This document shows positions 1 to 53,875 of a stretch of 64,000 nucleotides of DNA, one piece after another (the first letter of the stretch is position 1; each line of letters begins with the position of its first letter). The stretch is from contig CALKHR010000034.1 in assembly GCA_937988885.1 (NCBI GenBank), positions 23,310 through 87,309 on the forward strand. Direction: 5' to 3'. Under the pieces are notes generated by a model. The model did not search any database and was not told the DNA's origin. It was given only the letters and a program-made list of their open reading frames with translations. Source of the DNA: an uncultured Roseiflexaceae bacterium. Lineage in GTDB: Bacteria > Chloroflexota > Chloroflexia > Chloroflexales > Roseiflexaceae. The position numbers and the translations under genes are program-made.

Positions 1-1
1 T

Positions 2-967
2 GTGTACGTGTTGGTCGGTCGGCTCACTGGCCTTGACCACACGCGCGCGAGCCTGGCCACCATCAGCACGCTGATCGGGCGACTGGATATGGGGCCAGCG
101 CTGCGCAGCATCGCTCAGGTGCGCGAACTGCCCCGCCGCCCCCGCTACAGCGTCACCTCGAGCCATCTGGGCAAACGCAACTACTCGCGCTATGACATCG
201 AGCACGCCATCGAGCAGGGCTTGCGTGAGCCGTGGGTGTTCGTGCCGAACCGCCCCAGTGAGACGGCGCAGATCGGCCAACCCGCGCAGGACCTCGATCT
301 GCGCGTGCTGTTGGAGGACGATTGGGCACTGGTGGGCCTGCGGCTCGGCACCACACCCCTGCACCGTCGGCCCTACAAAGTCGCCAGCCAGCCCGGATCG
401 CTCAAAGCGCCCGTGGCCTACTGCTTGGCGCTGCTGGCCGACCTGCAGCCCGACGACATTGTACTCGACCCGATGTGCGGCGCGGGCACCATCCTGATCG
501 AAGCGCGCACCTGGCTGCGGAATGGCCGCTTGGTGGGTGGCGACCTGCAACCGAGCGCGTTGGCCTTCGCCGCCGAGAATATGCGCGCCGTCGGCCTCGC
601 CGTGCAGACAGTTGAGGAATCGGCGGTGGCGGAGGCGTTGCACACTGCGCCGTCCAGCTCGGCGCTGCTGTATCAGGGCGATGCGCGGGGCTTACGCCTG
701 CCCGAATCCAGCGTCCAGGCCGTGATCACCAATCTGCCGTGGGATCTGCAGGTGGCGGCGGGCGATAATGTCGCGGCGTTCTATCAGGCGGCGCTGCGCT
801 CGATCGCGCTGGTGTTGGCTCCGGGAGGCAGGGCGGTGCTGCTCAGCACGCAAATGGAACAGATGCAGGCAGCTCTGGCCCGTCGGCCCGAACTGCGCCA
901 AAACGATAGCTTCACCATCAGCCTGTTTGGTCAGCATCCCGCTGTGGTGCGTTTGCAGCGGGAGTGA
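2..967 (+). CDS. THUMP-domain class I SAM-dependent RNA methyltransferase (RlmL/Trm14-like), 5'-truncated by window edge
   Basis: ORF open from window start; SAM motif I DPMCGAGTILIEA and N-methylase motif IV NLPW; GC-rich native context. Confidence 0.7.
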   Translation: MYVLVGRLTGLDHTRASLATISTLIGRLDMGPALRSIAQVRELPRRPRYSVTSSHLGKRNYSRYDIEHAIEQGLREPWVFVPNRPSETAQIGQPAQDLDLRVLLEDDWALVGLRLGTTPLHRRPYKVASQPGSLKAPVAYCLALLADLQPDDIVLDPMCGAGTILIEARTWLRNGRLVGGDLQPSALAFAAENMRAVGLAVQTVEESAVAEALHTAPSSSALLYQGDARGLRLPESSVQAVITNLPWDLQVAAGDNVAAFYQAALRSIALVLAPGGRAVLLSTQMEQMQAALARRPELRQNDSFTISLFGQHPAVVRLQRE

Positions 968-977
968 GAGGTGCGCG

Positions 978-2072
978 ATGAGCGAGTGTCAACTGTACGA
1001 GTTTGTAGCGCTTGAGCAGTCACTCGATGCCAAAGCGCTGAAGTATGTGCGGGATCTATCGAGCCGCGCCCATGTCACCGCCACTCATGCACTATTCACC
1101 TATTCCTATGGCAATTTCCCTGCGGACCCATTAAACGTGTTAGCCAAGCACTACGACATGTTGCTGTACATGGCCAACTGGGGCACGCGACAATTAGCAT
1201 TTCGCTTTTCCAAGGGCACACTCGATGCCAAAGCGCTAGCGCCATACTACAACGGCACCGACGAAATCGAGATCAAGACCGTCGGCCAGTACGAGATTCT
1301 TGACATAACGATTCGTGATAATGAAGGTGGCGGTGAGTGGCTCTCCGACGAAGGGCAGATAGCGCCACTGATTGCCTTGCGCGGCGATTTGATGCGGGGC
1401 GATTTGCGGCTGTTGTATTTAGCCTGGCTCGCTGCTGCGATAGAGGAAGATCAACTTGAGCCGCCGGTGCCAGCGGGTCTCAACGAACTCAGCGCCCCGC
1501 TGCGTGCGTTCATCGAGTTCATCGGGATCGACCAAGATCTCGTTGTGGCGGCAGCCCGCGCAAGCGCTCCGCTCAAGGCCACCAAAGAGCCGATCGAGGA
1601 ATGGCTGCGACTGCTCCCCGCCACCGAGCGCGACGCGTTTCTGTTGCGTGCGGCGCAGGGCGAACTGATCAACGGCCCGCTGCTGCGGCGGCTGCGTGAG
1701 CTTGGTGGAGCTACCTGGCCGGATATCTCCACAGATTCACGGCGCAGCTTAGGGGAGATCATCGAACGCGCTGAGGAAGTTCAGCGGCTGCGCAAACAGC
1801 GTGAGCGCGCCGAGGCCGAAAAGGCGCGCCTTGCGAAACTTGCGAAGCTTGCCAAGCGCGAGGCAATGACGTGGGGCGAGGTCGCGGGGTATTTGACGAC
1901 GCGCAAGGCGTATGGCTACGACAAAGCCGTGGAGCTATTAGGCGAGTTGCATGAGCTGGCTGTGCACGAGAAGCGAGTGGATGCGTTCAACAAGCGCTTG
2001 CAGGAAGTGCTTGAGCCATACGCCAAATCGAAAGCCCTGCAGGAACGCCTGAAGCGGAGGGGGTTGTTGTAG
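978..2072 (+). CDS. hypothetical protein with C-terminal charged coiled-coil (KARLAKLAKLAKRE)
   Basis: Long ORF (track 768..2072); first ATG after upstream gene stop at 978; no recognisable family. Confidence 0.45.
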   Translation: MSECQLYEFVALEQSLDAKALKYVRDLSSRAHVTATHALFTYSYGNFPADPLNVLAKHYDMLLYMANWGTRQLAFRFSKGTLDAKALAPYYNGTDEIEIKTVGQYEILDITIRDNEGGGEWLSDEGQIAPLIALRGDLMRGDLRLLYLAWLAAAIEEDQLEPPVPAGLNELSAPLRAFIEFIGIDQDLVVAAARASAPLKATKEPIEEWLRLLPATERDAFLLRAAQGELINGPLLRRLRELGGATWPDISTDSRRSLGEIIERAEEVQRLRKQRERAEAEKARLAKLAKLAKREAMTWGEVAGYLTTRKAYGYDKAVELLGELHELAVHEKRVDAFNKRLQEVLEPYAKSKALQERLKRRGLL

Positions 2073-2142
2073 CGTCTTTATAGGAGGAAGATTTGCTTGT
2101 TCGATTTCGATGGAATGAGCATATCTTCCTGATCGAACATAT

Positions 2143-2171
2143 TTGCGAGCAATTCGACCCTTTTGTATAAT
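2143..2171 (+). promoter_or_regulatory. sigma70-like promoter TTGCGA-17-TATAAT, about 300 nt upstream of yhhQ-like gene
   Basis: -35 TTGCGA 2143-2148, 17-nt spacer, perfect -10 TATAAT 2166-2171; at the GC-drop boundary of the island. Confidence 0.3.
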
Positions 2172-2471
2172 GCGCGCGGTCATTTCTGCGCTATGCCATC
2201 ACGACTCCTCAAATCTCTATGCATCGTCGCACTTCCTCAAATGACAGTAGCGTTTTGACTGTAACGTTCAAAACGTGTCATCGTCGCTATAATCAGTGCT
2301 GAGTACTGGTGGAAGAACTACAGTGTAGTAGCGCATTGTTGTGCGCTGGTATCACCTGTGCAACATCGTGCGGTTTGAAAGAAAGAGAGGACAATTCGTC
2401 TCAAACTTGTTGGGAACGGTTGCCTAGGATGTTGAGTTCAAGTGTGCTGCTAATAGATAAGGAGGTTGTTT

Positions 2472-2999
2472 ATGGCGACTAAGGCAAAGTTGGGGATCAT
2501 TGCATTGATCAGCTATATCCTCACCATTTTTGCTGCCAATGTTGCAATTTCCTTGATAGGTGTTGTTCCTGTAGGTTTTGGCCTCATGGCCCCTGCTGGC
2601 GTTTATTTTGCTGGCCTCGCTTTTTCGCTGCGTGATGCTATTCAGGAGACGCTTGGGCGCCGTTGGGTTGTTGCCGCAATTTTGATCGGTGCGCTGGTTT
2701 CAGCGTTCCTTAGTGCACAACTCGCGCTTGCTAGTGGTATCGCATTTCTTCTAAGTGAGCTAGCTGATTTTGCTGTCTATACCCCACTTCGACAACGCTC
2801 TTGGTTTGCCGCTGTTGCTGTAAGCAACACTGTTGGTGCAGTAGTTGATAGTGCGTTATTCTTATGGTTAGCCTTTGGATCGCTAGAATTTTTGCTCGGC
2901 CAGATCACAGGTAAGCTTTGGATGACGCTCCTTGCAGTGGTGCTCATTACAGTGTGGCGGCGTTGGCAACTCAAATTCACCGCCTTCTCTCATAAGTAG
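2472..2999 (+). CDS. yhhQ: queuosine-precursor (preQ0/preQ1) transporter, VUT/YhhQ family (DUF165) integral membrane protein
   Basis: 175 aa, 5-6 TM helices, YhhQ-like sequence pattern (GLAFSLRDAIQE, FLLSELADFAVYTPLR); RBS AAGGAGG 6 nt before ATG 2472 (track ORF 2466..2999). Confidence 0.55.
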   Translation: MATKAKLGIIALISYILTIFAANVAISLIGVVPVGFGLMAPAGVYFAGLAFSLRDAIQETLGRRWVVAAILIGALVSAFLSAQLALASGIAFLLSELADFAVYTPLRQRSWFAAVAVSNTVGAVVDSALFLWLAFGSLEFLLGQITGKLWMTLLAVVLITVWRRWQLKFTAFSHK

Positions 3000-3044
3000 G
3001 TATTCGGTGAACTGCGAGACAACCATCTCGTTCAACAAATGTGA

Positions 3045-3632
3045 ATGGAAAAGGCAATGAGGATTCTCAACGTATCGGATCGCCAGATAACGTATGATGG
3101 CCGACAACTCGCGCCTCATTGGCTCTATCGTACGTTTAATCTATGCGGGGATGCTGCAGTGACTTTTATCGGGCCATGCAAAGTTGATCTCAGCGAAATG
3201 GTCGATATTGAGGATGTAAAAAATGCAGCGCCAATCTACAGTCCAATGATGCTTCATGTCATTGCTGAATTTTTTGGTAGTGACTTGCATCAAACAGTGT
3301 ATCGTCAGCGATTACTAATCGTGACTGCTAAGGAGTGGTTAGAGACCAAAACTGAGCGATCGGTGATCCGTAAGGGCGATGATCTCTACTTATCCCGTGC
3401 CGATGGAACCTTGGGTAAACTCTCAGTTTCAATCGCCACAGCAAGTATCACCTCAACTCTCATCCACACAGGTTTCAATATTCAGACCGATGGTACACCA
3501 GTGCCAACGGTCGGTCTCGCTGAACTTGGTATCGATCCGACTGAATTTGGCCAGGAATTGCTTCTGCGCTATGCAGAGGAAATTGAGGATATTTGGCTCG
3601 CCCGTTGTAAAGTGCGTGGGGTCAGCGAGTAA
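3045..3632 (+). CDS. hypothetical cytoplasmic protein (195 aa) inside the deazaguanine island
   Basis: Intact ORF, low-GC codon usage like its neighbours; no T-fold CxxxHGH or QueF motifs; family not recognised. Confidence 0.4.
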   Translation: MEKAMRILNVSDRQITYDGRQLAPHWLYRTFNLCGDAAVTFIGPCKVDLSEMVDIEDVKNAAPIYSPMMLHVIAEFFGSDLHQTVYRQRLLIVTAKEWLETKTERSVIRKGDDLYLSRADGTLGKLSVSIATASITSTLIHTGFNIQTDGTPVPTVGLAELGIDPTEFGQELLLRYAEEIEDIWLARCKVRGVSE

Positions 3633-3659
3633 ATACCCTCTCTTCCTAGGAGCGTAATG

Positions 3660-3691
3660 AGTGCTGTATTTTCATACGTTTCTGGTATGAT
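3660..3691 (+). promoter_or_regulatory. extended -10 promoter (TGgTATGAT) upstream of DUF328-like gene
   Basis: TGgTATGAT at 3683-3691, 62 nt upstream of ATG 3753; weak -35. Confidence 0.25.
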
Positions 3692-3752
3692 ACGCGGCTG
3701 GCACAGAATCTTAGGGTGCTAATGGGATGGTTGCATCATTCATGAGAAACGT

Positions 3753-4499
3753 ATGCGCTTGCTGATCCTAAATTGTTCTGCTCGCAAGCATGGCAGTGAA
3801 GATCTCATTCCTGCAATCGAGCGTTATGATGGTCCTGTTTGGCAGTTGCTGCGCAGTTATTTGCGCGACCATCAGCCTATAGTGCCACCTTTAGATGTAT
3901 ACGTCCTTTCAGCCGCGTTTGGCCTGATTCCTGCGGACAAGCCCATTCCCTGGTACGATCAAACAATGGATCCAGCACAGGCAGAATTGCTGCGTCCCTC
4001 GGTGTTGGCAACCTTCAAAACATTGATGCAGCGGGGATATGATCAACTCTGTCTTGGTTTGAGCCAACGGTATCTGCAAGCCATGCAAGGTTGGGAAGCT
4101 GTGGTACCTGTAACTGTACAAGTGACACTCACTGATGGCCCAATGGGTATGAAGTTGGGGCAATTACGTGCTTGGCTTAGGGGCTATGAATGGCAGCGGA
4201 ATGTTGAGCAACCACAACGCCTTGAGGCTGCTGAGCAACCGCGTGGTGAAGCTGTGATTGGTGGGGTAGCGCTTCGTCTCTCACAGGAAGAAGTTTTGGC
4301 TCAGGCACGCCTGGCGCTGGCGAATGATACAGTAGGTGCACAACGACGGTATCGTCATTGGTATGTGAGAATCGATGGAGCGCCTGTGGCCCCGAAATGG
4401 TTGGTGAGTCAACTGACCGGTTTGCCAACAAGCGCATTTGATGCGGGTGCTGCTCGTCGAGTATTGTTAGCGCTCGGCTTTGATATTGAGCATGTCTAG
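3753..4499 (+). CDS. DUF328/YaaA-like protein (DpdC-like) with extra about 70-aa C-terminal domain
   Basis: N-terminus LILNCSARK matches YaaA LILISPAKTL; LSAAFGLIPADKPIPWYDQTM matches YaaA [21 protein letters not shown]; 248 aa. Confidence 0.5.
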   Translation: MRLLILNCSARKHGSEDLIPAIERYDGPVWQLLRSYLRDHQPIVPPLDVYVLSAAFGLIPADKPIPWYDQTMDPAQAELLRPSVLATFKTLMQRGYDQLCLGLSQRYLQAMQGWEAVVPVTVQVTLTDGPMGMKLGQLRAWLRGYEWQRNVEQPQRLEAAEQPRGEAVIGGVALRLSQEEVLAQARLALANDTVGAQRRYRHWYVRIDGAPVAPKWLVSQLTGLPTSAFDAGAARRVLLALGFDIEHV

Positions 4500-4546
4500 G
4501 GCGCTCTGAGTTTGACAAGAATACCTACCAGACCTAGATCCTATCT

Positions 4547-4596
4547 AAAGATGTCGAGGCTTTGCATGATCGGCGCCTCGACATCTTTATTTTTAC
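4547..4596 (+). terminator. rho-independent terminator (14-bp stem aaagatgtcgaggc/gcctcgacatcttt followed by ATTTTTAC) between convergent genes
   Basis: Perfect inverted repeat 4547-4560 / 4575-4588 followed by T-run; stem shares the GATGTCGAGGC core of the dispersed palindromic repeat. Confidence 0.6.
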
Positions 4597-4608
4597 ATTG
4601 ACCAAGTC

Positions 4609-5781
4609 TTAAGCTTTAAGAGTCGCGCTCATTTGGAGTTGTTGATACAGTTGCCACGTATTGTGGAAACCTCGGCGTCGATTGCGGTTGTTACCACGGA
4701 AGATGATAACTTCGATGCCAATCTCACGACAGATACGGCATGGGCATTCTTGCCAAGGTCGGGCTTCAAGCGTTCGACGATAATCACTCTCTAAGCGTTC
4801 GCCTGGTGTTGTCCAAAGCGATGCGTACGCGAGTGCGTGCCGCAACGCTGCTTCTAATGTCGCTTCTCCTCGATCGTATGCACGTAGGATATTGAGGAGA
4901 TTTTGCTCTTGGCGAGAGATCTCGGTCTCATCAGCGTTTAACTTGCGAGCCAGGGTACGAGCTTCGGGGACTCGAATAGCTGTAAAGGTGAGATCACCAA
5001 TAAAGTAATTGCGGCGTCCATCCATCCAAGCGCGTCGGAGACGTGAAGCGCTATCGAAACTTGTCACCCCTAACTTCGCGAATTCTTGAATTTTTTCAGG
5101 GCGATTAACACCAAACAGATGAACTTGGGTGTCTAATCGTAATTCAGGCTGTATTTCCTTAAGGATGCGAAGAATCTCATTTGTTTGACTGCGAACCAAG
5201 CCACCGATCGCAATGTATTGATACCCCATGAGTAGCAGTTCGTGCACTGCTCTGCGATAGGAATCTGGACTCCACCCTTGAGCTACGCCGATAGGAGTAA
5301 AGGTATAACCACCGCTTTTGTGCAATTTGAGGAACTCCTCATTATTGCGCATGGTGATATTCCAGCGGCGCTCCTTTTCATCTTCGTGTTCTGCAAAAAT
5401 AAGATGATCGATCGAGACGCCGAGATCGAAGCCAAGGGTTTGATAGTATTCGAGCATTTCGGCGGTTTGATAAGGAGGCTCTGGTTGATCCCAATAACTA
5501 AACGCTCCGCAATCGCCGAGAACAAGGTGTTGTGCATCCTTAGGCCAACGCAAATAATTGTGTACTGATCCAAGGCTGACGATAGTTGCTTGCTTGCGAG
5601 TGTTATCTTCAATGACAGCACGTGAGAGTAACAGACCATCGTAGGGAGGGTCTGGATAGATCTCATGAGCATAACGATCATCTTGGTAAGGGTTGCGACC
5701 GACAGTATGAGTGTCTGTGAGAAAGTCATACCCGGGATCAACGCGGTCATCCCAGTCGGGAATATAGTATTGTATTGACAT
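4609..5781 (-). CDS. tRNA-guanine transglycosylase-like protein (DpdA-like 7-deazaguanine DNA transglycosylase candidate), 390 aa
   Basis: TGT-fold motifs: GDCGAF (substrate-pocket Asp region), GVAQGW, IAIGGL, zinc motif CPCRIC...H; no queuine-TGT signature. Confidence 0.65.
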   Translation of the reverse strand: MSIQYYIPDWDDRVDPGYDFLTDTHTVGRNPYQDDRYAHEIYPDPPYDGLLLSRAVIEDNTRKQATIVSLGSVHNYLRWPKDAQHLVLGDCGAFSYWDQPEPPYQTAEMLEYYQTLGFDLGVSIDHLIFAEHEDEKERRWNITMRNNEEFLKLHKSGGYTFTPIGVAQGWSPDSYRRAVHELLLMGYQYIAIGGLVRSQTNEILRILKEIQPELRLDTQVHLFGVNRPEKIQEFAKLGVTSFDSASRLRRAWMDGRRNYFIGDLTFTAIRVPEARTLARKLNADETEISRQEQNLLNILRAYDRGEATLEAALRHALAYASLWTTPGERLESDYRRTLEARPWQECPCRICREIGIEVIIFRGNNRNRRRGFHNTWQLYQQLQMSATLKA

Positions 5782-5805
5782 TGTTCATCTATCTATTTCT
5801 AATCG

Positions 5806-5837
5806 AAGAAAGGTTACTATAAGGTTCGACCTTTCTT
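5806..5837. promoter_or_regulatory. inverted repeat AAGAAAGGT-N14-ACCTTTCTT in divergent promoter region (candidate operator)
   Basis: 9-bp perfect arms 5806-5814 / 5829-5837 between the two divergent TGT-like genes. Confidence 0.3.
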
Positions 5838-5854
5838 GAGCGTGCTATCGTTTC

Positions 5855-5883
5855 TTGACAGATCATGAGGGGAAGGATATGCT
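5855..5883 (+). promoter_or_regulatory. sigma70-like promoter TTGACA-17-TATGCT for second TGT-like gene
   Basis: Consensus -35 5855-5860, 17-nt spacer, -10 TATGCT 5878-5883, about 95 nt upstream of ATG 5980. Confidence 0.35.
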
Positions 5884-5979
5884 ATTTTCGCTTGAGATGC
5901 AGCGTTACTGCTTTGTAGACCGTAAACATGCGCTCTGCATGATCTGTTTTAACCCCACCAGTTTTTAATATGTCTTCTT

Positions 5980-6876
5980 ATGGATTACTATGTTTCTTGG
6001 ACACACAGCGATCCTATTTATCAACAATACTTGGAAAATGTGCGGGCACTCGTCAGCCCTCCGAATGTGAATCGTACGTGGCATCCTAGCGATTGGGTTA
6101 CATTACCGAATGCTTTAATTCTCGATAGTGGAGCTTACCAATATCATCGAGAAGGTCGTAGCCCTGATCCCGCAGCGGTACTTGAACGACAACTTCAGAT
6201 GGTTGCCAACCTCACGATACCAGTAGGTATCTGCCATCTTGATGTGCCTTTGCCTGGTACACGCAACCTTGCAGAACTAGAGCGTCGCGTGGAACAGAAT
6301 TTAGTGAACGCACGTTGGCTGATACAAAGGGCTCAACAACTCGACTTGCCCTCGAATATTCGCCTGATCGGTGTAATTCAAGGTGCAACAAGCGAACAAA
6401 TTTATAGCGTCGCTTGTGTTCTCGCAGAACTTGGCTATCAATCGTTTGCTCTTGGATCATTGGCTCGTATGGTGGCATACGCGAAGGATGAACTGCTTCG
6501 GCGGGTTGAGTCAGCGCTTGAGGCTATTGGTTCGGGCCTGCATGTGCTTGGTGTGAGTTCCGCACCACTCCTTCCAGAACTTAGGCGTATTGGTGTCGAA
6601 TCAGCAGACTCAGGAGCTCCCATCCACGAGGCATGGCGCGGGGGAGTATTTTATAGCCATCCCTTCAGGCGCTATAAAATTGAAAGTCCTTATTTCAAAG
6701 AGTGGCAACGAAGTTATAGTTTTGCTGAACTTCTCTCTTCCCCATTGCCATGCGCTTGCCCTGTTTGTCAGCAAGATAGTAGCCAATTACTACAACCTCA
6801 AGGCAAGAAATTCGTTAACCTACGGGCGATTCACAACTATTACCACCTCGTACAGGAACTAGGCTCTTCAACATAG
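5980..6876 (+). CDS. short TGT-like protein (second DpdA-like paralog), 298 aa
   Basis: ALILDSGAYQY (TGT DSGGFQ-like catalytic Asp motif), VIQGATSEQ, zinc motif CACPVC...H; divergent from the 390-aa paralog. Confidence 0.6.
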   Translation: MDYYVSWTHSDPIYQQYLENVRALVSPPNVNRTWHPSDWVTLPNALILDSGAYQYHREGRSPDPAAVLERQLQMVANLTIPVGICHLDVPLPGTRNLAELERRVEQNLVNARWLIQRAQQLDLPSNIRLIGVIQGATSEQIYSVACVLAELGYQSFALGSLARMVAYAKDELLRRVESALEAIGSGLHVLGVSSAPLLPELRRIGVESADSGAPIHEAWRGGVFYSHPFRRYKIESPYFKEWQRSYSFAELLSSPLPCACPVCQQDSSQLLQPQGKKFVNLRAIHNYYHLVQELGSST

Positions 6877-7112
6877 CCCTAACGAGAGGCGAGTTTCGCT
6901 AATTTGTGCGATTGCCGCGCAAGTATACTCGACAGGGTCATGTAGGTCAAGAAGCCTTTTGGTAGATTGTATAAGTGGTTAAGTTGACATAAAATTAAAA
7001 GGCTTGACTATCGTTTTACCTAATGTACGACTCTTTGGCAGATCGACCCATCGAGTACTCCATGCCTAGAATAGATCTTACCAAACGCTATTCATACCGA
7101 TGGAGGTGCTCA

Positions 7113-8005
7113 ATGGATCGCGATGATTTTATCATCACTGTCTACTGTTTGGTGTGCGAGCAGTATCAGGCTATTTAGAGCCGCTATTCGCTCCGACGCG
7201 GGGATTTGCACCTGCCCTAATCGATGCCGAGGTGATCACACTCGAAATCTGTGGTGAGTACTTCAAGTTGAACACCGATCAAGACATCTTTGACTACTTT
7301 CGTACCCATTATCGGACTTGGTTTCCCGCTTTGACTGAACGCTCGCTGTTTGTTCGTCAAACTGCCAATCTCTGGCAAGTCAAGGCAGCGATACAGCAGC
7401 GTCTTACTCAAATCAGCGGTCAAGCTGCTGATCCGGTGCAAGTGATTGATACGCTGCCTTTACCAGTCTGTGCTCTCACACGCGCACCACGCGAGCGTTG
7501 CTTCACGATGCAGGCCGAGTATGGTTACTGTGTGGCCAAACAGATGCACTACTATAGTTTCAAACTTGGTTTGCGAGTGGCACGCTTGGGAATGATTACA
7601 TCGTTTCCGCTCTTGCCAGCCCGCCCACACGATACCAATATGCTTGACGATCTTGTCGATGGATGTACCGGTTTGACGCCAGCTGATAAAGGTTTTATCG
7701 ACGCGTTCCGTCAAGCCTTACTAGAAGAACGCCACGGTGTTCTGCTTGTAACGCCACCGCGTAAAGGGATGGCAGCCAGCAGCACGCCTGCTCTGCTGAA
7801 AGCCTGCCGATGCATCCGCAAGCGAGTGGAAATAGTTGCCTCGCAACTCACGGAACGATTTGCGATCTCGCGTATTCGGGTCCGTGATCTGTGGCACTTT
7901 CAGCAATGGCTGATACGCAAGGTGCTGGCGCGCACCATTGTGGTGTTTCTCAATCTGCAACTTGGTCGCGCTCCGCTTGATTTGGATAGCCTGGTCTCAG
8001 CTTAA
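7113..8005 (+). pseudogene. IS982-family transposase, disrupted by +1 frameshift near 7150-7175
   Basis: N-terminus MDRDDFIITVYCLVCEQYQAI (frame 0) runs into TAG; rest of the IS982-like DDE transposase continues in frame +1 from about 7153. Confidence 0.7.
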
Positions 8006-8132
8006 TTCTCTAAAAGTGTTGCACATTAGTATTACAACGCAGGGTTCAGGAAACACGGACTGCACTTGACCATAATAAGTGACATGGTATTCTCTCCTCA
8101 CAACGTTTCACACAATAGCAAGGAAGAACACC

Positions 8133-9561
8133 ATGTCCACGACTATTGTAGCACCGACTTGCCCATTGCCTTCCTGCAACCTGACCGAGCAGGATGTCCA
8201 GGAGTTACGTTCACAGCTCGACGCCTTTGTCACTCAATTTAACTCCTGTTTTGCTCGTGCCGACCAGCACGCTTGGGCTCACGCGTATCTCCAGGGTTTG
8301 CTTAGCGATCTTCCACGCAAGTCTATCAAACCTCGCGTTGGCTTTTGGTTTGTCGATACGCTCGCTACGAGCCTTCATCGGAAACAGCCCTTGGGACTAT
8401 GAACCGCTCTTGGCCCAGCAGCAAGCCCTCATGGCTCAAACTCTTGGTGACGAGGATGGCGTCTTGTTGGTCGATGAATCTGGCATGCCCAAACAAGGTC
8501 TGCATTCCGTTGGTGTCGCTCGCCAATACTGTGGCGCGCTTGGCAAGGTTACCTCCTGTCAGATGGGTGTGTTTATCGGCTATGCCACCACCAAGGGCTG
8601 TATCCTGGTGGATGGTCGCTTGTTTGTACCAGAGTGCTGGTTTGATGACGACCATGGTACCTTACGTGCCGAGGTTGGCATGCCTGCCGAGTTGACCTTT
8701 CAAACCAAACCTCAATTGGCTGTGCAATTGCTTGAGGCGATTGTCAAACGCGGTGTCTTGCAGGCGCGCTGAGTGGTAGCTAATGCGCTCTATGGCGATA
8801 GTCCTGCCTTTCGTGATGCAGTCGCAGCGATGGACCTATGGTACTTTACCGAGGTAGCCTGCTCGCAACTGATCTGGCGACGTCATCCGGCAGTGATTGT
8901 TTCTGCCTGGAAGGGTAAAGGACGTAAACCGACGCGTATGCAACTGAAAACACCGAGCAATCAACCATATCGTGTGGATGAACTGCTGTGGCGCTTGCCA
9001 AAGAGAGCTTGGATACGCGGAACCGTCAAGGAGGGCAGTAAAGGACCAATTGTGTGTGACTTCGCGTTTGTGTGTGTGACCGAAGCACGTGCTGGACTGC
9101 CAGGACCGCGACTGTGGCTGGTGATCCGACGAAACGTAAACGATCCCAGAGTGGTGAAGTACTATCTGTGCAATGCGCCAGAAACGATCGATACGGCACG
9201 GCTGGTGCGGATGTGTGGGATGCGCTGGCCGATTGAGCGGACATTTGAGGTCAGCAAAGACGAACTGGGCCTGGATCAGTACGAAACGCGCTCGTGGCTG
9301 GGTTGGCACCATCATATGAGTTTAGTGTTGCTAGCGCACCAATTTTTGGTATGGGTACGGGTACAGTGGCAGGAGCGAGCGCCAACCCTGACGCTGGCAC
9401 AGGTGCGACTATTGTTGACAAGTGTGATCCCGAAGTTGGTGCGGGACGCGACACGGGCGCTGATGATGGTGTGCTACTATCAACGGCGCAACCATGCCGC
9501 CTACCTTTCACATCGCAAACGCAAGTTGGCTTCGCTCGGTGCGCTTGATCCTGCGTTGTAA
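8133..9561 (+). pseudogene. IS701-family (IS4 superfamily) transposase, inactivated by a frameshift (about 8395-8405) and an in-frame TGA replacing conserved Trp (8770-8772)
   Basis: Three track ORFs (8079-8402, 8194-8772, 8773-9561) together form one IS701-type transposase (YGDSPAFRDAV, RWPIERTFEVSKDELGLDQYETRSWLGWHHHM); VLQAR-TGA-VVANALYGDS where intact copies have W. Confidence 0.7.
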
Positions 9562-9894
9562 TATTAGGTTATCGTTTTATATTGTTACTCGCACCAATCT
9601 AGGTACTTATGTCCGAGAGTGTTTAGGCCGTGTTATTGGGCGATGGTGGGTTTGATGGTACTGAATTGCAAGAGCATCTGCGAAACTCAATTGGTCATAT
9701 GTTTGAGGTAGTTATAATCACACCAACTCAGATGATGTGATGACGAAAGCCTACGGTTCAATCACACCGCAGGCCTTCTGAGAACACACTTCAAGGAACC
9801 AATCTGAGAAATCTAGATGCTATTGTAAAGTTGTACAAGAAGCAAGCATATAGTGTTATCGTTTTGTTGCAATCATAAAACGTGGTGATATACA

Positions 9895-11094
9895 CTATGG
9901 GGCGTATGGTGTTCCCTGCATTCCTGATTTATCACAAAAGTTTTTGAAATCGCAAACAGTACAGTTTTCTGGTTTTGGAATGGCTTCCCAAGACTGTGAA
10001 ATAGATGCACCTGCTTTCTCTTTGCTGATCGATAACTCAATATTTGAAACAACATTATCAAATTCTTGTAGACTTTGGCTGATCGTATGCTTTGTAATTG
10101 GTACTATGTGGATAGCACGTTGCAGACGATAGGCATCTGAAAGTTGTGGCAATGTATCTCTACGTCTCTTCGGATTCCAGGATGCCAAAACCTCTGCATC
10201 CTTCCCATTTGGCAGAATATCTGTTTTGGGTGCTCCATTGCCATGAATCTCTTCCCATAGATGTGTCAGATCCGTTTGGCTTGGCTCTAATTCATTCACA
10301 AATATGAGCATGCCAGCTAATACCTGATGGGAGTTTGCTTGTTGTTCACGTAGCCAAGCATAGGTTTGCAATTGCCATTCGTATTTTTGCAATGTATTAT
10401 CGGCAGGATCGTTGCTGGGGCGTCGCATGCCTTTATAGTCCACAATTATCTCAAACTGAGGTCGTGATAGATGTGACTGTTGCTTATGTGCCTCAGAGAT
10501 CATTTGCTGAATTTCTGAGTGGTTGAGGAGTGCTTGTAAAAGGATGTTGCTTGGATCGACTGCAGCCAATTGCAGAGATGTTAAAACATCTACTACCCCT
10601 GAGACTTCATAGTAATTGGAACGGGGCGTCGTCCCTTGTAGGTCTGGCATAGTTCGAATGCCTCGGAGACGCACTTCTGCTTGATCGATTAACAGAAATA
10701 AATATCTACCAATCTGGTTAATTAGCTTACGTGCGCGCACTTGAGCTATCTTAAGCATGGCTTGATTTCGATAGCGTAAACCCTGTGCAGCTAAGCGATT
10801 AATGATAGTGTTTTCAATATCTTCAAGCGTAGGAATATCCCAAGGGAAGGTCAATAATGGTCCAATGCCCTCGCCCGCCATCATAGCCTCTCGTTGATCG
10901 TGCCAACGTCGGTATGCTTCCTCCATAACACCGTGAATAAATTGGCCGAACCATAGTTGTACAGGTTTGGAGGGTGGTAGTGCACCACGATTATGATATC
11001 GATATTGGCGACCACAACTCATAAAGGATAAGAGATCGCCTGTTAAGCTATAGGAAGGAATAATATATGGTTCAGGCCGAGTTGACAGGCTCAC
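9895..11094 (-). CDS. Cas4/AddB-like PD-(D/E)XK nuclease with four-Cys Fe-S cluster motif
   Basis: N-terminal Cys (FMSCGRQYRY), RecB motif EIIVDYKG, C-terminal CTVCDFKNFC; 21 bp downstream of the UvrD-like gene (operon). Confidence 0.6.
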   Translation of the reverse strand: MSLSTRPEPYIIPSYSLTGDLLSFMSCGRQYRYHNRGALPPSKPVQLWFGQFIHGVMEEAYRRWHDQREAMMAGEGIGPLLTFPWDIPTLEDIENTIINRLAAQGLRYRNQAMLKIAQVRARKLINQIGRYLFLLIDQAEVRLRGIRTMPDLQGTTPRSNYYEVSGVVDVLTSLQLAAVDPSNILLQALLNHSEIQQMISEAHKQQSHLSRPQFEIIVDYKGMRRPSNDPADNTLQKYEWQLQTYAWLREQQANSHQVLAGMLIFVNELEPSQTDLTHLWEEIHGNGAPKTDILPNGKDAEVLASWNPKRRRDTLPQLSDAYRLQRAIHIVPITKHTISQSLQEFDNVVSNIELSISKEKAGASISQSWEAIPKPENCTVCDFKNFCDKSGMQGTPYAP

Positions 11095-11115
11095 AATATC
11101 ACCTCGTACTTTACT

Positions 11116-13455
11116 TTAAATATATACAATATTAGGTACGATTGGCCAACGTAGACCATTCGGAGAAGGATCTCTCCGATTCCAACCCAGTGCAATATTA
11201 GGGATTTTTGAATTGGGTTGATGCGTTTTTGGATCACGCAATCCTACCAATAAAAGGACATCTTGTGGACGGCTGAAAGCTACGAAATATAAGCGAAGTA
11301 AATCATCAAAGGCTCGGTCAAGTGCTGAACGTTTCGGTGTCAAGAGTGGAGAATGAGGACGAAGCGCATCCTCCAAGGCTTGCGGGCGACCATGTTGAGT
11401 GGGGAAGCGCTTAAAATGTTGTTTCCAATGGTTCCTTTTAAAATCGCTACCCACATCGACGATCACTAGAGGAAACTCTAAGCCTTTTGCTTGATGGATA
11501 GAAAGAATATTGAGACGATCCCGCGGAGTGGTTTCTAAAAGATCCTCATCGATTTCAATGTGGCCAGCAGCGAGAGGAGCTAAAATATCGTTGATTGCAG
11601 CCTCAACCGAAGCCTCATCAAATGAAGTTCCTGTGAAGATTTCTGCATTGTATCGACTGAAATGCGCAGATTGAGCCATAATGCGCGTAATAGCTTCCAA
11701 ATACACTAATCCTTCAGCATCCTCTTGCATTTCAGGTATCCATACGATTAAGTTGTAGAGTAACTCTATCAACCTAACAGACTGTGGCCAACCAGAACCA
11801 TGTTGTGGTTTCCGATCTTTCCAAGCTTGTACAAACTCCCCTAATGAATGCCGACGTATTCCTGGTGCTGGTGGGTTTGTTGCAATATATTCATTCGCCT
11901 TAGAACGCCAATCATTGAGGGTGTTGTATACATCGTTGGGTAATTTCCTGATGAGTCTGTTGGTCTGGACATCACCTTTGGGATCAATGCACTCTAGGAT
12001 TAAACCACAAATGCGTGCAACACTTTCAATTTCACTAAATTCCTGTCCCCGTGGATTAAAGACTCGGATCGATGGCAATAGGGCTTGTCGTAATAGCAAT
12101 GGCAAGCGTGGTTTTTTGCTACTGCTATATTCTTGTGGTGAACTTGATAGGAGAGCAATATCACCAACAGAGCCAGCCGAGGGGTTAATTGGAATATGAA
12201 CGTTACCGTGTTGTGTTGCGATAGTTCTTCCCTTATCAACAACGTCTTGAATAAAGGTTACGAGATCTGTAGCGAGACACTGAAGATCATCGCGAAACAT
12301 TGCTAAGATAGGGTATTCAACCGATGGTGTTGCTCGTCCTGCGATTAAAGGTGGCTTTCCTGCTACACGTGCCGCACTATAGTCAGGATCGTGTTGAAGG
12401 TACTTCATCGTATATTCAACAATTGAAGGGGTTGATCGATAGTTAGTATTTAAATAAATTGTTTGAGAAAGGATCCCTGTAGCGTCTTCGAGTCGATGTA
12501 CAAAATCACGGAACAAATCAACTGTTGCTCCGCGAAAACGATAGAGTGATTGATCATCATCTCCAACTACAGTTATCGATCCTTTATTTGCATGAGCAGC
12601 ACGAGCTAGAGTGAAATAGATTGACTCTTGAAGTAGATTGGTATCTTGATATTCATCTACTAAAACTACTTGAAGCGTATCTGTAAAACGTTTTAATGAA
12701 CCATCTTTTAGTCGTTGATAAAAACTTTGTTCTAATGATGCAAAATCGAGCACCTGTATGCTATCAAGATATTGTTCATAGGCGTCAATTACCTCAAAAA
12801 GTGCATTCACTTCAGTAGGTTGAGAGGCTCGAAATTGTTCTCTATCAACTTGATCATGAATGAAGCGTTGGCGGATCTCGCTAGCAAGTGAGGCAATATG
12901 ATGCGTAAGAATAGAATCTTCGCAGCATAAATTTTTGAGGTACAATTTTAGCGCTAGATTATTCCAAGCATTAGTTTCAAGGACTCCCTTACGGAACATA
13001 AACGTTCGACCAATAAACTCATCGATCATTACTGGAGGCTGCATTCCTGCTGAACGAAAATCAAGAAGCACCTGTTGTGCAATACTGTCAAGAGTTCCTA
13101 TGAATATTTGATTGAGATCGAGGCGTTCTAACCACTGTTGCTGTTCCTGATTTGCTTTAGATTTTAGGGTATCACGTAAATTATCTCCCCATCCAAGGAT
13201 GCGCGAGCGCAACTCAGCAGCAGCTCGCTTGGTAAAGGTTGTTGCAAGGATAGTGCTCGGAGGCACCTTATCCACAAATATAAGTTTTAATACTCGGAGT
13301 GCCAGTACAGTAGTTTTGCCACTACCTGGACCTGCCACTAGAAAGAGCGAATGCCCTTTATCCGCTGTTACAGCCTGATGTTGTTGTTTATTTGTAGTAA
13401 GATGTTTATCTAGTGCGACAGCAGTAGCATCTAAAAAATCTGGTAACTGAAACAT
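11116..13455 (-). CDS. UvrD/Rep/PcrA-family SF1 DNA helicase
   Basis: Motifs I GPGSGKTT, Ia TTFTKRAAAEL, II VLVDEYQDTN, III VGDDDQSLYRFRGA, IV NYRST, VI IHQAKGLEFPLV. Confidence 0.85.
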   Translation of the reverse strand: MFQLPDFLDATAVALDKHLTTNKQQHQAVTADKGHSLFLVAGPGSGKTTVLALRVLKLIFVDKVPPSTILATTFTKRAAAELRSRILGWGDNLRDTLKSKANQEQQQWLERLDLNQIFIGTLDSIAQQVLLDFRSAGMQPPVMIDEFIGRTFMFRKGVLETNAWNNLALKLYLKNLCCEDSILTHHIASLASEIRQRFIHDQVDREQFRASQPTEVNALFEVIDAYEQYLDSIQVLDFASLEQSFYQRLKDGSLKRFTDTLQVVLVDEYQDTNLLQESIYFTLARAAHANKGSITVVGDDDQSLYRFRGATVDLFRDFVHRLEDATGILSQTIYLNTNYRSTPSIVEYTMKYLQHDPDYSAARVAGKPPLIAGRATPSVEYPILAMFRDDLQCLATDLVTFIQDVVDKGRTIATQHGNVHIPINPSAGSVGDIALLSSSPQEYSSSKKPRLPLLLRQALLPSIRVFNPRGQEFSEIESVARICGLILECIDPKGDVQTNRLIRKLPNDVYNTLNDWRSKANEYIATNPPAPGIRRHSLGEFVQAWKDRKPQHGSGWPQSVRLIELLYNLIVWIPEMQEDAEGLVYLEAITRIMAQSAHFSRYNAEIFTGTSFDEASVEAAINDILAPLAAGHIEIDEDLLETTPRDRLNILSIHQAKGLEFPLVIVDVGSDFKRNHWKQHFKRFPTQHGRPQALEDALRPHSPLLTPKRSALDRAFDDLLRLYFVAFSRPQDVLLLVGLRDPKTHQPNSKIPNIALGWNRRDPSPNGLRWPIVPNIVYI

Positions 13456-13858
13456 AATTACGGAACAGTCCTTTGCTATTTATAAGGTTCCTATGTTATG
13501 CAGCTTTACTATAGTGGGGATTGATAAAACATTACCTATCGAGTGATGCTAATTATTTACTAGAAAGCAAAAATTACAATTGAGTAAGGAGTCTCATTGG
13601 GAAACCGTTTGTAAAGGAGGAGTAAGAGACTCTACAAACTAGAGTTTACATTGGTTGCTCTATGGGCAGGCGTGCAAATACGTTGTAGAGTGAGAGTGGG
13701 TTGTAGCTGTGTTCGAAGAGTGTATTGAGTTTGCCCTTGCACCATATACGTCCCATTGAACTTCCCATATAACGACGAACTCTTTTTATTCTACCAACAC
13801 GTAAGCACCAGAACAGCACCACGGAGCACAACTCCTTCCTAACAGTTCCACATTGCTA

Positions 13859-14980
13859 TTACCCCCGTGGCGTGCGGTACGGGCCAAGGTATCGCTGGAC
13901 CAAGGCGAGGTCGAACTGATTTTGTAAGGTGGTGCGGGCGCCTTCGGCGGTGGCGTCGAGCGCGCGCCCGATCTGCTTGCAGATCGCGTCGGCCAGGAAC
14001 TGCGGCAGTGGCTCCTGCACGCCATTGACCTGCAACGCGCTGCGGAAGGTCGCGAGCACCGCCCCCAACGGCTCGCGGGCGATCAGCGCGGCGGGCAGTT
14101 CGAGCCGATACGCTGGCCCTGTCTCGTCGGGGCGGTAGTAGATCACGTAGAGTTGGCCGTAGCCATGCTCGATCGCCATACGGCGCTCATTGAAATCGCG
14201 CAGATTGTTTGAGCGGTAGCCCGTCAGCAAGTGCGGGCGATCCTGCTTGATCAGCGGTACGGGCAACGAATGTTCACCCGCCTCCAGCACCGTGCTCCAC
14301 AGCGTGCGATCGGTGACGGTGCCCGAGAGGTGCGGCGCCAGTGCTGCCACATCGTCGGCGGCGGTGGCCTGCTTGGGGTGCGCAACCACACGCCGACACT
14401 CCAACACCAATCGCCAGTCCTGCTCATCGAAGAACTGTTCGAGCACCCTGCGGAACGGCGCCCACCAGCCCGGCATCTGCTCGCTGCGCGAGTCCTGCGC
14501 AAAGCGCATCAGCAGGCGGTTGACCTCGAGCAGCGCCGAGTAGAACGAACCATCCAAAACGAACAGACCTGTGCTGGTGGCGCGAATGCGCTTCGCCAAC
14601 AGCCGCAACTCCAGGATCGTGCGTAGACCGCCTAGAATGCTCTCCAACTCCTCGACGGGCGGCATCAGTTGCACCAGTACCGATTGATCGGTTAGGCTCG
14701 CCTCCTCGACGGCGACCGCCGCAACCGCCGCGAACGTTGCGCCAGCGGCGGGCACGGTGGCATGTGCGCCGTCAACCGCGCACAATCGCCGCACCGGGCC
14801 GTTGGGAGCCTTGCGAATCCGGCGCGCCAAAGCCTCGCGCAGACGGTCGCGGTCGCCTTCGAGTTGGAGCAACGTCTCGCGACAGGCATCGGCGCAGGCG
14901 TTGATCGCCGCGAGCACCGCCGCCGGCAACGCCGCAGGATCAAGCTCGTTGGGAGTTCCTGTCAAAGTGTGTGTGGTCAT
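13859..14980 (-). CDS. hypothetical protein, possible NurA-like nuclease domain
   Basis: 373 aa GC-rich ORF; VLDGSFYSALLE resembles the NurA (I/V)DGS catalytic motif; no HerA partner adjacent. Confidence 0.3.
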   Translation of the reverse strand: MTTHTLTGTPNELDPAALPAAVLAAINACADACRETLLQLEGDRDRLREALARRIRKAPNGPVRRLCAVDGAHATVPAAGATFAAVAAVAVEEASLTDQSVLVQLMPPVEELESILGGLRTILELRLLAKRIRATSTGLFVLDGSFYSALLEVNRLLMRFAQDSRSEQMPGWWAPFRRVLEQFFDEQDWRLVLECRRVVAHPKQATAADDVAALAPHLSGTVTDRTLWSTVLEAGEHSLPVPLIKQDRPHLLTGYRSNNLRDFNERRMAIEHGYGQLYVIYYRPDETGPAYRLELPAALIAREPLGAVLATFRSALQVNGVQEPLPQFLADAICKQIGRALDATAEGARTTLQNQFDLALVQRYLGPYRTPRG

Positions 14981-15225
14981 AGGCGGCTCTTATCGCTAGC
15001 AAGCGTTCAACTTCAGCACTACGAACACCTGTGCGTAGTATAGCATAGAGCGCAAGTTTGCTATTGGCATCGCGCGGTATCCCTGGTATACTCGCAGTAC
15101 ACACGTTTGGATTGATGCTTGCTTCGATTCGGGATCGCGCTGTCATCCCACAACCAACAGCCATCGCTGTTTGCTATTGCCTACCCACGTTTCGTTTCCT
15201 CGTTTGTATCATCGTAGGGAGCGTC

Positions 15226-53407: not shown

Positions 53408-53875
53408 ATGATAGCACAACTTCCTAGCTCGCCCGAAGTGCTGGGCCAACGGATCGCTCGTCTGCGGGCGCAGCGGGGGTGGACACAGCAGGAACTAGCG
53501 GAACGGTTAGCGGCCTCGCGGGTGGCCGTGTCGCACTTTGAGATGGGCTTGGCGATGCCGAGCGAGCGCACGGTGGTGTTGTTGGCGGGTCTATTCGGTT
53601 TTGAGCCGCATGAGTTTGTGGAGGGGACGAATTATCCGGTTGCGAAGGCTGAGCGTTTGCCGTTGGTGACCTGCCGCTATACGGAGGTTGAGCATCAGTT
53701 AGCGCTGATGCATCGCGATCTTAGTTGGCTTGAGCGCGTTGAGCGGCCCGATCTGCGCGAGGCGGTGCTGACCGAATGGCGCGAGAAGCTTCTTCACCTC
53801 ATCTCCACGACCTTCGATTCCCATGAACTTCAGTTGCTTGCCCAGGCTCAGGCAACACTGCTTTCAGCTTGCTAA
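53408..53875 (+). CDS. XRE-family helix-turn-helix transcriptional regulator
   Basis: Cro/C1-type HTH (LRAQRGWTQQELAERLAASRVAVSHFEMG); in-frame ATG 53408. Confidence 0.55.
   Translation: MIAQLPSSPEVLGQRIARLRAQRGWTQQELAERLAASRVAVSHFEMGLAMPSERTVVLLAGLFGFEPHEFVEGTNYPVAKAERLPLVTCRYTEVEHQLALMHRDLSWLERVERPDLREAVLTEWREKLLHLISTTFDSHELQLLAQAQATLLSAC

Follow-up and report, generated by a model that had tools for sequence, protein, structure and literature searches.

We analyzed a 64,000-nt stretch of DNA from an uncultured Roseiflexaceae bacterium (contig CALKHR010000034.1 of assembly GCA_937988885.1, positions 23,310 to 87,309 of the forward strand), hereafter the window. It contains two divergently transcribed genes coding for proteins of the tRNA-guanine transglycosylase (TGT) superfamily. 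One is DpdA, a DNA-guanine transglycosylase, and the other is a shorter TGT-fold protein for which we coined the label sTGT. A preliminary description of the sequence had presented them as dissimilar paralogs of 390 and 298 aa, each keeping a Zn site (CPCRIC...H and CACPVC...H) and an Asp motif (GDCGAF and DSGAYQ). The open reading frames (ORFs), their strands and their Pfam TGT scores confirmed the pair, and all of these motifs were located with their residues present. The same description held that known bacterial dpd loci carry one dpdA, in line with the published accounts consulted, which give only single-DpdA loci (PMC10516641, PMC5699537). The positions of the features discussed below are collected in Table 1.

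The DpdA and sTGT proteins

Both proteins were scanned with the curated models of Pfam, NCBIfam (June 2026), PADLOC and PHROGs. The gathering or equivalog cutoffs were 26.3 bits for Pfam TGT, 200 for the DpdA model NF041059, 47.6 for the superfamily model TIGR00449 and 350 for the arcTGT model TIGR00432. On these scores the longer protein is assigned to DpdA at the equivalog level. It reached 465.3 bits with NF041059, its residues 3-383 aligning with positions 1-404 of the 406 in the model, and 432 bits with the PADLOC DpdA model, for a Pfam TGT score of 55.4 bits. With the crystal structure of the Salmonella enzyme that inserts preQ0 into DNA (7UI4; PMC10164549), it scored 318.9 bits (E 4.5e-94). 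Its motifs are GDCGAF (residues 89-94), SIDHL (123-127), FDSAS (242-246), CPCRIC (346-351) and GFHNTW (371-376). In Salmonella DpdA, the key residues are the acid/base Asp95, the base-binding Asp130, the nucleophile Asp256 and a Zn site, and replacing the acid/base or the nucleophile Asp by Ala abolishes guanine exchange (PMC10164549). The window protein has D90, D125 and D243 at the equivalent positions, all three invariant in the DpdA alignment, with C346, C348, C351 and H373 as Zn ligands. It is predicted to exchange guanine for preQ0 in DNA.

The second protein, sTGT, passed no equivalog cutoff, and its matches across the four collections were confined to models of the general TGT or DpdA type. 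It passed Pfam TGT (PF01702) with 43.2 bits and barely passed the generic superfamily model tgt_general (TIGR00449, 47.8 bits). It scored 57.6 bits with NF041059, over model positions 92-266 only, and 43.3 bits with the arcTGT equivalog. In PADLOC it matched DpdA models only, at 51 bits. No match was found at E<=0.01 with the bTGT equivalog TIGR00430 or in PHROGs, nor at E<=1e-3 in a tblastn search of 50,697 phage records.

Searches of large protein collections indicated that sTGT belongs to a small family. Among 5.8 billion proteins, 124 homologs were found, nearly all of the full-length ones being 290-346 aa long. Their database names are those of tRNA enzymes or hypothetical proteins, annotation pipelines labeling sTGT as queuine tRNA-ribosyltransferase or 7-cyano-7-deazaguanine tRNA-ribosyltransferase. 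In a set of 1.84 billion representative proteins, the family amounts to approximately 50 clusters (50% identity) at E<=1e-30, beyond which the next matches are proteins of DpdA length and DUF6884-DpdA fusions. For a profile of the family, the scores were 70 bits with 7UI4, 49.5 bits with arcTGT and no more than 37.8 bits with bTGT. By these comparisons sTGT forms a distinct small family whose nearest relatives are bacterial DpdAs. With an equivalog-level DpdA as its neighbor, neither gene of the pair groups with the tRNA-specific TGTs, and nothing was found in favor of the suggestion that the two divide DNA and tRNA targets between them. Haloarchaeal plasmids (Halomicrobium, Salinigranum, Haloferax, Natronorubrum and others) also code for proteins annotated as tRNA-guanine transglycosylases that match sTGT with 26-28% identity over 74-86% of its length.

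Alignment of 26 sTGT homologs, down to 34% identity, showed invariant residues at D49-S50-G51, D88, Q134-G135, G159-S160, H188, G191, D210-S211, C258, C260, C263 and H285. They lie in or around the motifs DSGAYQ (49-54), CHLD (85-88), SADSGA (208-213), CACPVC (258-263) and AIHNYYH (283-289), and by homology they make up the whole TGT catalytic and Zn-binding set. D49 would act as general acid/base, D88 and Q134 in base recognition and D210 as nucleophile, the Cys3-His cluster forming the putative Zn site. Profile alignment (hhalign) pairs the catalytic and Zn residues of sTGT one-to-one with D90, D125, D243 and the Zn site of DpdA. The AlphaFold2 model of sTGT, with a predicted local distance difference test score (pLDDT) of 90.7, is a TGT-type TIM barrel whose Foldseek template modeling (TM) scores to bTGT, arcTGT and DpdA are 0.7-0.78. 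The protein thus has the hallmarks of the superfamily, i.e., the TIM barrel, the DSGxFQ, LD, QG, GGL-like and DS motifs and the CxCxxC..H Zn site. The invariance of the catalytic residues rules out a pseudo-enzyme, and sTGT is predicted to be an active 7-deazaguanine transglycosylase.

Identity between the two proteins is about 24% by tblastn (229 aa, E 4.6e-7) and 23% over 269 columns in a profile-profile alignment (E 1.5e-34). They are therefore old paralogs, and a recent duplication, against which the preliminary description had argued, is ruled out by this level of identity. The profile alignment starts at residue 22 of sTGT and residue 49 of DpdA. Relative to DpdA, sTGT lacks approximately 45 N-terminal residues and an insertion of some 85 residues preceding the Zn motif, which would fall in the gap between D210..Y225 and C258. 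Neither the DpdA-specific N-terminal segment nor the helical insertion before the Zn motif is thus found in it.

Partner genes of sTGT and the absence of DpdB

We assembled 45 loci containing sTGT, 38 from contigs taken from one genome per species and the rest from plasmids and metagenome contigs, covering Chloroflexota, Bacillota and Deinococcota. DpdA lies within the examined flank in 35 of these 45 loci from three phyla, a pairing far beyond chance. Clustering of the ORFs of 42 loci and the window revealed two further partners, h257 (a protein of about 257 aa, in 32) and a P-loop nucleoside triphosphatase (NTPase) of about 950-1060 aa, in 36. The NTPase matches Pfam AAA_22 and has invariant Walker A and B motifs, and its first ~120 residues match the PADLOC DpdH models (E 1e-16). 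No significant Pfam or PADLOC match was obtained for h257 or for two other locus proteins, h264 and h155 (marginal hits at E>0.01, far under the cutoffs), and profile searches of the PDB with h257 and the NTPase returned nothing beyond a Walker A match.

The genes follow the order sTGT, h257, NTPase, and the ORFs overlap or abut in Paenibacillus and Deinococcus. The Bacillota loci have an extended series of overlapping or abutting ORFs, i.e., Vut_1, a DUF6884-DpdA fusion, h264, sTGT, h257 and NTPase. Next come queCDE and/or an SNF2 helicase or, in an annotated plasmid, dpdJ and dpdK. In Deinococcus, dpdF, dpdE, a DUF6884-TGT fusion and a helix-turn-helix (HTH) gene are divergent from sTGT, h243, NTPase and a WYL gene. 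The Chloroflexales have DpdA and sTGT divergent as in the window, with a convergent h155/NTPase/h257 operon beyond sTGT. Genes found in sTGT loci also include dpdE, dpdF, dpdJ, dpdK, DpdD, queCDE and Vut_1. DpdA and sTGT are adjacent in Chloroflexales, separated by one other gene in Bacillota and about 5 kb apart in Ktedonobacteria. The genes most tightly linked to sTGT are therefore those of h257 and the NTPase, and not DpdA.

In at least four loci (L127, L128, L012 and L013), sTGT is the only TGT of a Dpd-like cluster. L127 carries queE, queD, queC and genes for an HhH-GPD protein, an HTH protein, the NTPase and h257, divergent from sTGT, which is followed by DpdD, a PLD nuclease and a DpdJ-like helicase. 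In L128, a DpdJ-like helicase, PLD, DpdD, NTPase and h257 are divergent from sTGT and the succeeding QueF-like, QueC, GATase, QueD, QueE and Vut_1 genes. The gene tables of both list no TGT besides sTGT, and L012 and L013 are similar. As sTGT also occurs without DpdA in the flanks examined, it is not merely a DpdA accessory, and these loci provide the strongest argument that sTGT is an insertase in its own right.

No DpdB was found in the 45 sTGT loci or in the window with 10 DpdB queries at E<=0.01, and the unannotated partner proteins and window proteins scanned gave no match to PADLOC DpdB. We also examined 80 metagenomic loci sampled independently of the sTGT set as those most similar to the window DpdA. 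By tblastn with three DpdB queries, 19 of them carry DpdB and 15 a second TGT paralog, and none carries both. The exclusion held when only loci flanked by 4 kb or more on both sides were counted (0 with both, 8 with the paralog only, 9 with DpdB only and 5 with neither; Fisher p = 0.0055). The second TGT was sTGT in 10 loci, eight of which have both h257 and the NTPase in the flank, and another short, Nostoc-type TGT in five. The latter (315 aa) has a DEAD/DEAH helicase on either side, and its loci lack DpdB and have a DUF6884-DpdA fusion (L043, 15167-16114, on a Nostoc sp. NIES-3756 plasmid; L056; L058; L080; L111), which looks like an independent swap of DpdB for an extra TGT and NTPases.

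Salmonella DpdA is inactive without the DpdB ATPase, and canonical DpdA shows no activity in vitro in its absence (PMC10164549). Taken with the recurrent replacement of DpdB by a second TGT and an NTPase, this suggests that such modules supply the missing function. The proposal that the pair of TGTs makes up for the missing DpdB is therefore upheld in part, by correlation: no DpdB was found in the window or in the 45 sTGT loci, and a second TGT and DpdB exclude each other among the 80 DpdA loci. The part that did not stand is the identity of the unit, which is not the pair alone, the NTPase being a more plausible substitute for DpdB than the second TGT.

A decayed island in the window

On the DpdA side of the pair, the window retains genes for a queuosine-precursor transporter homolog, a DUF366 protein and a DUF6884 protein (Table 1). 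The transporter ORF scored 36.2 bits with TIGR00697, under the cutoff of 50.95, and Vut_1 homologs occupy the equivalent position in sTGT loci of Chloroflexia and Paenibacillus. DUF366 homologs, 69-78% identical, occur in L008-L011 and L036. The gene is next to Vut_1 in the window and beside QueC/Vut_1 in L008 (1340-1942) and L036 (approximately 7328-7900), a co-location that suggests an unrecognised role in the supply or salvage of 7-deazaguanine precursors. DUF6884 is the domain of DpdC (PMC11888242), and its family motifs are CxxxK and LSAxxG (PMC11701544). The window protein carries both, as CSARK and LSAAFG, and gave weak matches to PADLOC DpdC (E 9e-5).

Table 1. Positions in the window of the features discussed, with the supporting matches
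Feature	Position	Strand	Evidence
VUT/YhhQ-family queuosine-precursor (preQ0/preQ1) transporter homolog	2466..2999	+	177-aa ORF, start possibly further upstream; Pfam Vut_1 39.4 bits
DUF366 protein	3045..3632	+	195 aa; Pfam DUF366 205.7 bits
DUF6884 (DpdC-type) protein, candidate dPreQ0-to-dADG hydratase	3753..4499	+	248 aa; Pfam DUF6884 28.8 bits (cutoff 30)
Canonical bacterial DpdA (DNA-guanine transglycosylase, preQ0 insertase), assigned by model score	4609..5781	-	390 aa; NF041059 465.3 bits
Divergent intergenic region	5782..5979		198 bp, 40% GC; promoter-like site, inverted and direct repeats
sTGT, short TGT-fold paralog, predicted 7-deazaguanine transglycosylase	5980..6876	+	298 aa; Pfam TGT 43.2 bits
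h155 relic, 3' end	6868..6978	-	about 36 codons and stop; five h155 queries, same spot and strand, E 0.002-0.014
IS982-family transposase ORF	7154..8005	+	283 aa; NCBIfam transpos_IS982 181 bits (cutoff 130)
IS701-family element	8027..9566	+	transpos_IS701 139.9 and 154.6 bits on two halves; terminal inverted repeats 8027-8045 / 9548-9566
PD-(D/E)XK nuclease, possibly island accessory	9895..11094	-	399 aa; Pfam PDDEXK_1 47.6 bits
UvrD/GajB-like superfamily 1 helicase	11116..13455	-	779 aa; Pfam UvrD-helicase 164 bits, PADLOC GajB 129 bits
NurA-domain nuclease	13859..14980	-	373 aa; Pfam NurA 35.5 bits

On the other side of the pair, searches of the 64-kb window for h155, the NTPase and h257 recovered nothing but a relic of h155, the first gene of the convergent h155/NTPase/h257 operon of the relatives. 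The relic reads LLDLHDPVEYTCAAIAQISETRLSL where relatives have LDLLRLVEYTSAAVALVQERRSAL, and its frame is cut upstream by a stop. In the Roseiflexus locus L004, h155, NTPase and h257 lie exactly between sTGT and a pair of PD-(D/E)XK nuclease and UvrD helicase genes; in the window, this interval is occupied by two insertion sequences (IS), IS982 and IS701. The h155/NTPase/h257 operon has been deleted from the window and replaced by these elements, so that the sTGT/h257/NTPase module is incomplete here. The IS701 element is probably an inactivated copy: its terminal inverted repeats match at 17 of 19 positions, and an in-frame stop at 8770-8772 splits the transposase into ORFs 8194-8772 and 8773-9561. 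With the module deleted, the intact DpdA-sTGT pair would be an orphan modification remnant or already non-functional.

Homologs of the nuclease/helicase pair, 60-64% identical, flank the sTGT system in two other Chloroflexota genomes, L004 (16273-19845) and L015 (4-3449), in differing arrangements, and the pair may be an accessory restriction or repair module. The nuclease homologs of the two loci have 60-61% identity, and the L004 pair has 61-64% identity to window 9895-13455. The NurA nuclease was not seen next to the sTGT system in other loci. Elsewhere in the window, the large ORFs scanned with PADLOC and Pfam coded for housekeeping, RTX, TPR and transport proteins only, with no dpdB and none of dpdD to dpdK. 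What remains of the system is thus the YhhQ-type transporter, DUF366, the DUF6884/DpdC-type protein, DpdA and sTGT. The GC content is 50.4% for the island (1-15,000) and 48.2% for 2400-6900, against 59.5% for the rest of the window (15001-64000), which fits horizontal acquisition. At the very start of the window, a UPF0020/Trm14-like methyltransferase gene (2-967; PADLOC mad2, 57 bits), cut by the window boundary, overlaps the beginning of a 434-aa ORF (768-2072) without family match.

Close relatives have an XRE-type HTH gene separating DpdA from sTGT and, beside DpdA, a gene for an HhH-GPD DNA glycosylase; both are absent from the window. The glycosylase (approximately 230-247 aa) is the immediate neighbor of DpdA or of the HTH gene in L001 (7694-8389), L007, L008, L009, L038, the P0001 contig and L127 (4316-5059). 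On the P0001 contig, from the closest relative (80% identity), a nucleoside 2-deoxyribosyltransferase gene accompanies it. In L009 (8871-10741; Chloroflexales bacterium ZM16-3), an apparent deletion has removed DpdA together with the first ~49 codons of sTGT, and the HhH-GPD gene abuts what is left of sTGT, making this another decayed copy of the same island.

The spacer between DpdA and sTGT had been described as holding a TTGACA-17-TATGCT promoter and a perfect 9-bp inverted repeat, the repeat being suggested as a possible shared operator. Both elements are present, the former at 5855-5883 on the plus strand and the latter (AAGAAAGGT/ACCTTTCTT) at 5806-5814 and 5829-5837. The promoter match carries no statistical weight, because three such sites were found in 4400-7200 and 3.6 were expected from shuffles. 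The 9-bp repeat arises in 0.9% of spacer shuffles, and the real-window background is 0.14 such perfect repeats per 198 bp; it is unusual relative to shuffles but not to the window's own background. We also found a perfect 10-bp inverted repeat absent from the preliminary description (ACAGATCATG / CATGATCTGT, at 5858-5867 and 5938-5947, 70 nt apart), which shares bases with the -35 hexamer of the promoter-like match and stops 32 nt short of the start codon of sTGT, and direct repeats of TTTCTTGA at 5832 and 5851.

No nucleotide similarity was detected between the spacer and the corresponding region of 12 related loci, i.e., neither promoter nor repeats are conserved. The equivalent regions of the relatives mostly hold the XRE-type HTH gene. 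The window spacer contains no remnant of it, the sole weak HTH match in the window being at 53441-53596, and an Rfam gathering scan of the whole window gave no preQ1 or other riboswitch. A role of the repeats as a shared operator is possible; the lack of conservation speaks against it, and the natural candidate regulator, the XRE-HTH protein, is absent from this genome segment.

Proposed function of the sTGT module and relation to known systems

We read the locus, with a probability of roughly 60%, as the degraded modification part of a Dpd variant that lacks DpdB and has an alternative 7-deazaguanine insertion module, made up of sTGT, h257 and the NTPase. In such a system, preQ0 would be imported by the YhhQ homolog or made by QueCDE, and sTGT would swap guanine in DNA for preQ0. 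The NTPase would provide the ATP-driven step that DpdB provides to canonical DpdA, h257 would serve as a non-catalytic adaptor, and the DUF6884/DpdC-type protein would convert dPreQ0 to dADG. Where DpdA and sTGT coexist, both may be active insertases on shared machinery, most likely differing in sequence context or in 7-deazaguanine substrate.

Several points weigh against this reading. The absence of DpdA from the sTGT-only loci applies to flanks of 3.6-10 kb, not to whole genomes. Neither a second TGT nor DpdB is present in five of the 22 well-flanked DpdA loci, only three tblastn queries were used to detect DpdB in the 80 DpdA loci, and these are the closest to the window DpdA, not a random sample. 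The exclusion of DpdB might also mark two lineages of Dpd systems, not a functional replacement. It is from genomic context that sTGT is presumed to act on DNA. DpdH, to which the NTPase is similar, belongs to the restriction operon in canonical systems, and the module could thus be the restriction side. Finally, if the NTPase is needed, the pair in the window should be inactive, yet both ORFs are intact, which would fit either TGTs that work without the NTPase or a very recent deletion.

A more far-reaching proposal, which we advance only tentatively and with the odds against it, is that sTGT is a sixth subfamily of DNA 7-deazaguanine transglycosylases, bacterial and DpdB-independent, with the NTPase and the 257-aa adaptor as obligate partners. 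In two-enzyme loci, DpdA and sTGT would then mark different motifs or install different derivatives, e.g., dADG via a DpdC-linked DpdA and dPreQ0, dPreQ1 or dG+ via sTGT. If this were true, the different marks would amount to a two-mark self-recognition code.

The main alternative, unlikely in our estimation, is that sTGT, h257 and the NTPase form instead a restriction or sensing arm, with DpdA alone modifying DNA. sTGT would in that case be a reader of TGT fold, flipping out target guanines to test them. On foreign DNA, it would bind or excise G that is unmodified and signal to the DpdH-like NTPase, helicases and nucleases. Beyond its P-loop, the NTPase indeed resembles only DpdH, a restriction-operon product (PMC11888242, PMC10164549), the Chloroflexales NTPase operon is transcribed separately from DpdA, and HhH-GPD glycosylases occur in several sTGT loci. 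The window, moreover, lost the module and kept DpdA, the DpdC-like protein, YhhQ and sTGT, and loss of restriction genes is the tolerated route of decay for restriction-modification systems. However, L127, L128, L012 and L013 have preQ0 synthesis and Dpd restriction genes and no transglycosylase other than sTGT to insert the base. Likewise, something must replace DpdB, given that DpdA is inactive in vitro without it (PMC10164549), and sTGT is intact in the window although its supposed restriction partners are lost.

We consider it quite improbable that sTGT is a non-catalytic or regulatory partner that forms a heterodimer with DpdA, as QTRT2 does with QTRT1, and stabilizes DNA binding so that DpdB becomes dispensable. 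TGTs act as dimers, in eukaryotes as a heterodimer made of two paralogs (PMC10164549; bioRxiv 10.1101/2025.04.06.647259), and the frequent co-occurrence of DpdA and sTGT, with adjacency in Chloroflexales, would agree with such an arrangement. The invariance of all catalytic residues of sTGT is unexpected for a structural subunit, however. Its occurrence without DpdA also speaks against this reading, as do its closer linkage to h257 and the NTPase and the intervening gene or ~5 kb between the two TGTs in Bacillota and Ktedonobacteria, respectively.

Still less credible is a queuosine- or archaeosine-type tRNA-guanine transglycosylase lying beside dpdA by chance: the narrow pass of tgt_general and the tRNA-ribosyltransferase names given by annotation pipelines are offset by the score far below the arcTGT cutoff and the lack of a bTGT equivalog match, by a length (298 aa) too short to accommodate the PUA-type domains with which arcTGT binds tRNA at its C-terminus, and by the patchy, island-borne distribution of sTGT, its ~45 loci lying amid dpd restriction genes and not translation genes. 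An action on a protein-nucleobase conjugate (deazaguanylation), as in Cap10 of the type IV cyclic oligonucleotide-based antiphage signaling system (CBASS), with h257 or the NTPase being modified, has a precedent in that defense-island TGT paralog retargeted to protein (bioRxiv 10.1101/2025.04.06.647259) and would agree with the presence of QueC in many sTGT loci, but is hardly to be expected, since Cap10 lost the Zn site, which stabilizes nucleic acid binding (bioRxiv 10.1101/2025.04.06.647259) and which sTGT keeps invariantly, no CD-NTase, the operon partner of Cap10 along with the QueC-like Cap9, occurs in the loci examined, PADLOC matched sTGT to DpdA models only, and QueC is accompanied by QueD and QueE, i.e., the ordinary preQ0 pathway.

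The interpretation of sTGT, h257 and the NTPase as an insertion module bears on an acknowledged puzzle, the requirement of DpdA for the DpdB ATPase (PMC10164549). Dpd systems that swap DpdB for a second TGT and an unrelated P-loop NTPase, or in another lineage for a second TGT and two helicases, would offer an independent way to probe the ATP-driven step. The interest is tempered by the state of the island in the window, a decayed copy interrupted by insertion sequences, and the functional statements are drawn from sequence and context. In the literature consulted, we came across no account of dpd loci with a second TGT paralog, although an earlier mention is possible, and a preprint on the QueC family does not mention TGT or Dpd; the sTGT family is thus apparently undescribed. 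In it, bacterial DpdA (bDpdA) and DpdA1-4 are the recognised subfamilies, and insertion in bacteria is ascribed to DpdA acting with DpdB (PMC10516641, PMC10164549, PMC5699537). The joint presence of dpdA and dpdB was a condition of a genome-mining survey (PMC11888242), and DpdB-less loci of this kind would therefore have been excluded by design. Islands with sTGT are also under-called because curated models miss the protein or label it a tRNA enzyme. It would extend the DpdA classification, which is used as a signature of 7-deazaguanine in DNA.

Compared with the canonical Dpd system, dpdA-dpdK of Salmonella Montevideo (PMC10164549, PMC5699537), the window has bDpdA, a DUF6884/DpdC-type protein and a preQ0 transporter in a low-GC island flanked by IS elements, and the sister loci add queCDE, DpdD, helicases of the dpdE/F/J/K types and a PLD nuclease. 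The differences are the lack of DpdB in the window and the 45 sTGT loci, and the presence of a second TGT, h257 and an NTPase that is DpdH-like only at its N-terminus. Of the canonical set (dpdA, dpdB and dpdC, with dpdD-K), only dpdA and a DpdC-like gene remain in the window; the sister loci have DpdD, E, F, J and K. With bDpdA (NF041059; 7UI4), sTGT shares the TIM barrel, the Asp triad, the stacking aromatic residue in DSGA(F/Y)Q and the CxCxxC...H Zn site; it differs in being only 23% identical and in having a P-loop NTPase partner in place of DpdB. His181 of Salmonella DpdA is Gln in sTGT, and likewise in the window DpdA.

The phage and viral DpdA1-DpdA4 (PMC6884629, PMC10516641) are, like sTGT, short proteins of the TGT fold; they are stand-alone DNA transglycosylases that need no DpdB. 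The sTGT genes lie on bacterial chromosomes or plasmids, are associated with an NTPase module and match neither phage records nor PHROGs. The short TGT of cyanobacterial dpdA loci, represented by Nostoc sp. NIES-3756 plasmid pNOS3756_2 (WP_067777439.1, 315 aa), is similar in its DpdB-less locus, with a DUF6884-DpdA fusion and NTPases alongside. It nevertheless belongs to another family (hhalign E 8e-20 over 190 columns) and sits between its two helicases without h257 or the P-loop NTPase. QTRT1/QTRT2 and Cap10 of type IV CBASS are likewise TGT paralogs that were paired or recruited to defense. QTRT2 is non-catalytic, and Cap10 lacks the Zn site and binds protein (bioRxiv 10.1101/2025.04.06.647259); in sTGT, by contrast, neither the catalytic residues nor the Zn ligands have been lost.

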